62,430 bases of DNA from Pseudomonas phage CRPAP1904. Shown in pieces: positions 426 to 742 of this stretch. How positions within the stretch are numbered: position 1 is the stretch's first letter; each line of letters starts with the position of its first letter. The translations under genes were made by a program, and so were the position numbers. A model generated the notes under the pieces. The model saw only the letters and a program-made list of their open reading frames with translations. It was not told where the DNA came from and did not search any database. The DNA lies in sequence record PQ741025.1, one strand, 5' to 3'.

Positions 426-742
426 GGGTGATTCGCTCCGCGAATCACGAGAGGCATAGGGGGAGGGGGGTAAGAATTCTTTTGGCCGGAGACGAAAACG
501 AATCCGAAGTGGGGAGTGGGGTTTTCGAGAGGGAGGGGTTGGACCCACCCCCACGCTCCCATAGCCCTCTAAAAACAAAACCGCGAGGTCGTCAAAAACA
601 AAACCGCGGGGGCCCCCTCTAAAACAAAACCGCAAGGCTATCGGAGCAGTTTCAAAATAAAACCACCAACCCACAAGGTTGTCACGTTGAACGTTTCAGT
701 GCTACATTCACTTCCGCTCTACCACCTACAAAGGAATACGGC
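426..742. promoter_or_regulatory. Divergent control region: G-run block, four ~17-bp iterons (AAAACAAAACCGC core, 567..667), sigma70-like promoter for the rightward operon (-35 TTGTCA 679..684, 18-nt spacer, -10 TACATT 703..708)
   Basis: Non-coding 317 bp between divergent gene starts at 386(-) and 743(+); direct repeats and promoter hexamers read directly. Confidence 0.5.

Follow-up and report, generated by a model that had tools for sequence, protein, structure and literature searches.

What governs transcription at the place where the two gene arms of Pseudomonas phage CRPAP1904 part? In the window, i.e. the whole 62,430-nt stretch of DNA analysed here (sequence record PQ741025.1), this place is a non-coding gap of 356 bp (387..742), lying between the ATG of the first leftward gene (386..384) and the ATG of the first rightward gene (743). 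An earlier note on this DNA had described a divergent non-coding region of 317 bp; the region is real, non-coding and the sole point where the two arms diverge, as judged from a flip in AT-skew and from the annotations of relatives, although 39 nt of the leftward leader had been left out of it. The first 3 kb match those of phiR18, KPP25 and YMC17/07/R4900a (R4900a below) at 95-96%, all three being members of the genus Kochitakasuvirus. It is fairly probable (about 0.6) that 387..742 is the divergent transcription-control region of a Kochitakasuvirus, made up of three independently evolving modules: a core promoter, a set of dispensable variable repeats and a leftward leader or operator. Throughout, it fits the known kinds of regulatory DNA in phages. 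Members of the genus are being put forward as therapeutic phages against multidrug-resistant Pseudomonas aeruginosa. In the published genome papers the gap carries no annotation, and the description of CRPAP1904 reports no promoters.

The gap was aligned in 11 sequences, namely the window, those of three isolates, a contig from IMG/VR and six metagenome contigs that were found via the 145-aa neighbour protein. Two conserved parts, a left block (387-545) and a promoter core (648-712), flank a hypervariable middle (546-647) in this alignment. In L011, the most divergent relative, the flanking genes are 84-85% identical to those of the window, while the left block reaches 95% and the core 91%; since both blocks outdo the flanking genes, both are under constraint and the middle is not. 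Intergenic lengths of 305-367 nt occur among the relatives, without preservation of helical phase, so that the conserved blocks need no fixed distance from each other.

Predicted rightward promoter

Every position on both strands was scored with a sigma70 position-weight model in which matrices for the -35 and the -10 are combined with a penalty for the spacer and a bonus for TG. The highest rank among the 622,630 scored combinations, genome-wide, belongs to a site in the core on the + strand (679..708), which consists of a -35 element TTGTCA (679-684; five of six positions of TTGACA), an 18-nt spacer and a -10 element TACATT (703-708; four of six positions, including A2 and T6) preceded by TGc (700-702). 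It is co-oriented with the first rightward gene, and the end of the -10 lies 34 nt from the ATG at 743. The same TTGTCA-18nt-TACATT arrangement had been singled out as a sigma70-like promoter in the earlier note, and this assignment is borne out: the promoter is invariant in 11/11 sequences and the stretch 648-712 is almost invariant overall. Conservation drops sharply about 3 nt past the -10 (710-712), as would be expected if transcription starts near 715, and the start is predicted at about 714-716. Beyond this boundary, the rightward leader (713..742) occurs as two unrelated alleles among the relatives, with only the Shine-Dalgarno sequence AAAGGA (730-735) kept. The rightward sigma70-like promoter is thus very well supported in silico, and it would fire from about 715 into the operon of the small and large terminase subunits, portal and capsid. 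This provides a concrete predicted promoter for the packaging and structural operon, usable in engineering or as a reporter. The second-ranking sigma70-like site of the genome (7948, + strand) lies in the gap preceding the major capsid gene, suggesting that the phage uses the host sigma70 polymerase on its rightward arm; this placement also speaks for the scan picking out sensible sites.

Two further elements of the core may contribute to its activity. A degenerate copy, AAAATAAAACCAC (654..666, + strand), of the A-rich repeat AAAACAAAACCGC that is described below carries two mismatches and is the sole repeat copy invariant in all 11 sequences. Its A-tract AAAATAAAA (654-662), also invariant, covers about -61 to -53 relative to the predicted rightward start and probably aids the docking of RNA polymerase in the manner of an UP element, while the stretch corresponding to the proximal UP subsite (-46 to -38, 669-677) is C-rich and variable. 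The copy at 654-666 would act either in this UP-like way or as the -10 of a leftward promoter. The promoter spacer holds a small invariant palindrome, ACGTT-G-AACGT, and may serve as a protein site.

A similar organisation is known for Escherichia coli promoters of the rrnB P1 type, which also have a near-consensus -35 and an A-rich element near -55, the weaker -10 hexamer here being compensated by its extension, and which also carry further upstream A-rich repeats (about -88, -114 and -137 here) that are individually dispensable. In contrast to that type, the proximal UP subsite here is not A/T-rich, the spacing of the repeats is out of helical phase, and close relatives lack the upstream copies or carry others in their place.

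The leftward promoter must also lie in 387..742, because the upstream 30 kb holds only genes of the opposite strand. The best candidate, a weak one (657..685, - strand), consists of GTGACA (685-680), a 17-nt spacer and TTTTAT (662-657), with a score of 10.0 and rank 30 in the genome. Most likely, the two promoters are arranged back-to-back and have a common -35, TTGTCAC/GTGACAA; as a candidate, this arrangement would explain why the conservation of the core begins near 648. The only -10-like hexamer of the left block, AAGAAT (481-476), is not accompanied by a -35.

A terminator-like hairpin on the - strand (681-667) was rejected, its stem being destroyed in L011, L012 and L016. The 8-mer TTGTCACG (679-686), which contains the rightward -35, occurs seven times in the genome against about 1.9 expected, and four of these copies (60004, 60084, 60093 and 60159) are found in an AT-rich region near 60 kb. 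It may represent a regulator site common to the promoter and that region.

Hypervariable middle segment

The repeats that had drawn attention to this locus were described as four evenly spaced direct repeats of about 17 bp. Three exact copies of AAAACAAAACCGC are indeed present on the + strand (572..584, 595..607 and 621..633), together with the promoter-proximal copy with its two mismatches, but they are not evenly spaced (start-to-start distances of 23, 26 and 33 nt), and the exact core is 13 nt long, with similarity extending over at most 18 nt. At up to two mismatches, the genome contains six matches to AAAACAAAACCGC versus 0.94 expected, a number reached in 0/100 shuffles; besides the four copies of the gap, these include two 2-mismatch matches elsewhere. 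The G+C content is 0.56 across the array and 0.525 in the intergenic region, against an average of 0.604.

No other 60 nt within 3 kb on either side vary as much as those of the middle, where the mean pairwise identity is 0.2-0.4. At the position of the first exact copy, phiR18, R4900a, L011 and L012 have none; the second is found in the window and the IMG/VR contig only, and the third is the most widely shared among the type-A relatives, i.e. those with distal A-rich copies. In total, three distal copies are present in the window, three (two of them variants) in the IMG/VR contig, two (one variant) in KPP25, one in phiR18 and one plus a fragment in L013-L016. R4900a, L011 and L012 carry no distal copy; in its place they have two units of a 31-nt hairpin-forming repeat, GGCAATTCTGYGCARAGCGTYGAGTTGC (the type-B allele), which is unrelated to the A-rich repeat and absent from all the other sequences. 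The type-B contigs, 64 kb in full, include ERZ27269190 k141_297426 and ERZ28595279 scaffold_243. The repeats are therefore retained in related phages in part only, and the proposal of the earlier note that they form an operator or a partition-type iteron array controlling both arms is not supported, the distal copies being variable and, in three relatives, replaced. The eye-catching repeats are an unsafe marker of an origin or an operator.

The flanks of the gap in R4900a are 99-100% identical to those of phiR18, yet R4900a carries the hairpin allele, which indicates that the segment was exchanged as a cassette by recombination. Both alleles consist of tandem or direct repeats. The middle would be a low-constraint tract that changes by tandem duplication and deletion and by recombination, and the distal repeats would be extra copies of the promoter-adjacent A-rich element (at about -57), dispensable and at most tuning the strength of the promoter. 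Intergenic variable-number tandem repeats behave similarly, in that copies differ in number (1, 2, 3) among near-identical genomes and unit boundaries fit slippage or unequal recombination; unlike those, the units here are imperfect (23 and 26 nt), and an unrelated repeat allele fills the same slot in other lineages.

Alternatively, the repeats might be operator or activator sites for a phage or host regulator, with the two alleles of the middle acting as alternative specificity cassettes swapped by recombination. Three exact 13-mers within 62 nt, the construction of both alleles from direct repeats, and the swap within nearly identical flanks are all consistent with this possibility, and so is the existence of a few small genes that are specifically divergent in R4900a (g29, g41-44, g66, g77 and g78). 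However, the copy number varies from one to three among genomes with near-identical proteomes, the spacing is irregular, and the R4900a-specific genes that were read do not look DNA-binding: no recognisable DNA-binding signature was found among them, g29 encoding a small membrane protein. The two phage proteins named earlier as possible regulators of the repeats do not follow them either. In a comparison of R4900a, which lacks the distal repeats, with three repeat-bearing genomes, the small helix-turn-helix (HTH) protein (35618..35788) is 100% identical and the winged-helix protein (56566..57102) is 88-98% identical, with 98% to the window; the TerS-like protein is 97-98% identical (96-97% for the nucleotide sequence), and the primase, helicase and polymerase are at least 98% identical. 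Hence, a co-variation of repeat type with TerS, with the two HTH proteins or with the replication proteins was rejected. The conservation of these proteins despite the loss of the repeats argues against HTH operators, terminase sites and origin iterons, and an operator, origin, partition or terminase-site role of the repeats is not supported by these sequence comparisons. We regard the regulator-site explanation as unlikely.

Phage phi29 (promoters A2b/A2c and A3 with the p4 sites) offers a comparable case: a short non-coding region of a podovirus where early and late arms diverge and repeated A-tract-rich sites lie near promoters, as here. The late promoter of phi29 has no -35 and depends on the activator p4, which binds conserved inverted repeats. 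In CRPAP1904, by contrast, the promoter of the packaging and structural genes is near-consensus, and the repeats are direct, not conserved and without a co-varying regulator.

The repeat array is bracketed by an inverted repeat with the arms GCTCCCATAGCC (555..566) and GGCTATCGGAGC (636..647). In this stem, 85% of the alignment cells are paired and two pairs show compensatory changes, a result that is weak against controls. Its 3' arm shares 14 nt (the AACCGCAAGGCTAT region) with a strong hairpin, CCCCGATAGC-GCAAG-GCTATCGGGG, located at 48982-49006 on the - strand in the gap preceding an 801-aa primase-like gene and kept in three isolates. Two other properties of the repeat units were considered and rejected: the units do not have stems adequate for terminators (GCGGTTTTGTTTT, - strand), and phasing of A-tracts for intrinsic curvature is contradicted by spacings (23, 26 and 33 nt) out of helical phase and by paired A-tracts that lie half a turn apart within a unit. 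The winged-helix-like gene has a repeat of its own, a 9-nt tandem unit GGCTGGGCT present about eight times (56765-56853), which encodes a PAQ/PTQ repeat linker.

Conserved left block

The left block probably belongs to the leftward operon, as its leader or operator. A perfect 9-3-9 palindrome, GTGATTCGC-TCC-GCGAATCAC (428..448), is unique in the genome (0.07 expected) and invariant in the 11 sequences. It may be either an operator for a dimeric protein or, on the - strand, a hairpin of the leader RNA with a GGA loop. Its interpretation as a host operator was rejected, as no Pseudomonas record was present among the 54 matching stretches in a scan of 185,579 species genomes; two additional matches in viral contigs look like chance.

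The four dense G-runs that had been quoted for this region are all present: GGGGGAGGGGGG (459-470), GGGGAGTGGGG (511-521), GAGGGAGGGG (529-538) and CCCACCCCC (544-552). They form part of the densest cluster of G/C runs of at least 4 nt in the genome (439-560; six per 110 nt, a density reached nowhere else). The first of them, a G5-A-G6 run on the + strand, has a G4Hunter score of 1.96 and is polymorphic in length among the relatives (G5AG5, G6AG5). The next two build a putative quadruplex motif on the + strand, GGGG-AGT-GGGG-TTTTCGAGA-GGG-A-GGGG (511..538), with loops of 3, 9 and 1 nt and all four G-runs kept in 11/11 sequences. The G4Hunter scores of 1.96 and 1.88 in the region are ranks 3 and 4 genome-wide. 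Whether a quadruplex is predicted depends on the limits applied: the 9-nt loop exceeds the strict limit of 1-7 nt, but under relaxed limits (loops of up to 12 nt, or G4Hunter of at least 1.5) the motif at 511-538 is recovered (1.88-1.96) and conserved. A motif that is strict does exist in the C-rich tract at 544..567 (- strand), but in this genome alone, the relatives not having all four runs. Relaxed motifs number 16 genome-wide versus 6.3 +/- 2.3 in shuffles. Formation of a G-quadruplex in this block is possible from its sequence, and the most economical role for the G-runs is that of a part of the leftward leader or operator.

Another possibility is that the left two-thirds of the gap (from about 650 to 387) are a long structured leader of the leftward transcript, made from the back-to-back promoter and acting through RNA or DNA structure. 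Candidate elements for such control are the hairpins of the variable part, the quadruplex or i-motif tracts, the palindrome hairpin with its GGA loop and a hairpin that would sequester the leftward Shine-Dalgarno sequence: ACUCC (about 419-423) is predicted to pair with the GGAG (395..398, - strand), as ACUCC/GGAGU, and these pairs are invariant. The leader explanation is further consistent with the - strand GTGACA-17-TTTTAT candidate at rank 30 and with the leftward end of core conservation at about 648, where that candidate would start transcription. It also agrees with the folding of the - strand RNA, which is slightly better than that of shuffles (z = -1.94; 7/200 as good), with the conservation of the G-run motif, and with a left block more conserved in L011 than neighbouring coding DNA. 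Against this, RNAalifold found compensatory changes in 0/43 predicted pairs of the left block, with an unfavourable covariation term, and the bracketing stem described above is weakly supported. The candidate promoter is without the A at -11. In the type-B hairpins, the wobble pairs point to a fold of the + strand and not of a leftward transcript, yet the + strand itself folds no better than shuffles (z = -0.31). Structural control by a long leader is regarded as unlikely.

Some further features were noted. AGGGAGGGGTT (530-540) is an 11-nt perfect complement to 746-756, i.e. codons 2-5 of the first rightward gene; a complement of at least 11 nt arises in 5/1000 shuffles, and the pairing is kept in relatives via G-U after a synonymous C-to-T change. 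A start upstream of 530 would be needed to place the two segments on one transcript; a start at 715 would not do so. CCCCCTCCCCC was rejected as a recurring motif of the leftward arm, its second exact copy (44702) lying inside a coding sequence. The highest G4Hunter score of the genome (2.28) is found elsewhere, at 60493-60540, in a long G-rich/C-rich hairpin just past a five-gene leftward cluster; the hairpin is terminator-like, without a clear U-tract.

Evaluation of the proposed organisation

Several points weigh against the division of the gap into a constrained promoter core, a dispensable repeat tract and a leftward leader or operator. All ten relatives are at least 84% identical, which limits the depth of the conservation arguments. 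Tandem repetition is seen in both alleles of the middle, and thus selection, not neutral change, may underlie the repetition itself. Relative to the canonical distal UP subsite (-57 to -47), the A-tract is displaced upstream by a few nucleotides, and the proximal one is not A/T-rich. The -10 of the leftward candidate, TTTTAT, lacks the critical A at -11. For a late operon that encodes packaging and structural proteins, a near-consensus sigma70 promoter is out of the ordinary; it implies early expression or a repressor, the site of which could be the invariant spacer with its small palindrome. Finally, no transcriptome or 5' mapping was found in the literature for the genus, and the promoters and starts are predictions.

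A combined alternative assigns more function to the variable DNA: the middle would be a swappable cis-regulatory cassette under diversifying selection, its two repeat alleles setting a gating factor or structure for both arms, and the G-run block would act as a quadruplex or i-motif switch on the leftward operon. We consider it quite improbable.

A recognition site for terminase, of the type of the lambda cosB R-sites or SPP1 pacL, might be suspected from the position of direct A-tract repeats upstream of an operon with TerS-like and TerL genes; lambda cosB (R1-R3) and SPP1 pacL also have repeated A-tract elements upstream of the packaging operon. In CRPAP1904, on the other hand, the repeats are not conserved and do not co-vary with TerS, which in R4900a remains nearly identical without the distal copies, and the TerS-like gene is 1.3 kb downstream of the repeats. 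The terminase of another member of Kochitakasuvirus has been placed among those of headful packagers (PMC13119210), the terminase of the genus clusters with this group, and the records of relatives are circular; headful packaging is thus predicted for the genus, which also argues against a cos-type site. A terminase-site role is very improbable.

An origin of replication or a partition site is the least probable of all, a highly improbable assignment, for although direct repeats do lie in a non-coding region of lowered G+C with one DnaA-box-like 9-mer (one mismatch, about 403-411), there is no adjacent initiator or ParB-type gene (the neighbours are of unknown function), an A/T-rich unwinding element is likewise absent, the copies are not kept among genomes with primase, helicase and polymerase at least 98% identical, and the GC-skew switch at the gap is uninformative about an origin, since it coincides with the switch in the direction of transcription. 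Classical iterons are 17-22 bp long, regularly spaced at about 22 bp, and located beside an A/T-rich unwinding element and DnaA boxes, at or in the initiator gene. Origins with iterons (lambda ori, P1 oriR, pPS10) resemble the present array in that non-coding DNA holds three to four direct repeats; none of the classical properties is found here, the copies are lost in relatives, and the array does not comprise three or more direct repeats of 17-22 bp with regular spacing.

Far better candidates for an origin are two A/T-rich, repeat-dense regions at 29576-30139 and 59881-60553, which are likely to be origins or early-promoter clusters, and the regions near 29.8 and 60.2 kb are where an origin and early promoters should be sought. 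These non-coding regions are homologous (139 nt at 77% identity) and 30.4 kb apart, and in both, arrays of the 9-nt unit TGTYACGAW accompany a core of extreme A/T-richness. The region at 59881-60553 contains three tandem 49-nt repeats (AAAAAATTTCGTAACACGCTGGAGCCTTAGTGCCACGCGGGTTT), and that at 29576-30139 one inverted copy. Directly upstream of the first region is the gene of a 2107-aa virion protein (23252-29575). A virion RNA polymerase with special promoters of its own was considered for this protein and rejected: it has no sequence match in Pfam or PDB, and PHROGs describes it only as a virion structural protein.

Genome context and minor features

The rightward arm begins at 743 with three small genes, which are followed by genes encoding the TerS-like protein, TerL, portal, capsid, tail and virion proteins. 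The first of these genes (743..1180, + strand) encodes a 145-aa protein of unknown function, and an N4 gp49-like gene precedes those of the TerS-like protein and TerL. The leftward arm begins at 386, crosses the junction of the window and contains small genes of unknown function, then genes of primase, helicase, polymerase, exonucleases and a lysis enzyme. Its first gene (156..386, - strand) encodes a predicted membrane protein of 76 aa (phrog_34001, unknown function) and is an annotated coding sequence in phiR18, KPP25 and R4900a. The arms converge at about 33.2 kb. No known domains were identified in the proteins neighbouring the gap. Searches for distant relatives gave only three protein clusters for the 145-aa protein among 5.8 billion sequences, and scans of viral and metagenome sequences returned close relatives only.

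Possible coding regions within the gap were rejected. In relatives, indels and 1-nt polymorphisms of the G-runs interrupt the open reading frames at 428..622 (+ strand) and 383..562 (- strand), and also the frame that would extend the leftward gene upstream to 674. No Rfam families or tRNAs were found in the window at threshold. A permissive scan of 300-850 gave a match to the Rfam family CRISPR-DR21 at 566-598 on the - strand (GTTTTTAGAGGGCTATG), which reached 18 bits where the cut-off is 48 (E = 2.7) and was judged to be due to chance.

Sharply different alleles are present among near-identical genomes in the third rightward gene (1549-1849) and in the leader at 713-742, independently of the repeat type, and their distribution indicates fine-scale mosaic recombination. 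Within the TerS-like gene, a 15-nt tandem repeat (2014-2109) encodes a K/T/A-rich N-terminal tract, and the length of this protein varies from 225 to 246 aa among relatives. Bases 1-127 of the window are an exact copy of 62304-62430, in a repeat that interrupts a 93-aa gene. The identity of the ends is read here as an overlap left by the assembler on a circular or permuted genome, whose true length would then be 62,303 bp, and not as a biological terminal repeat.

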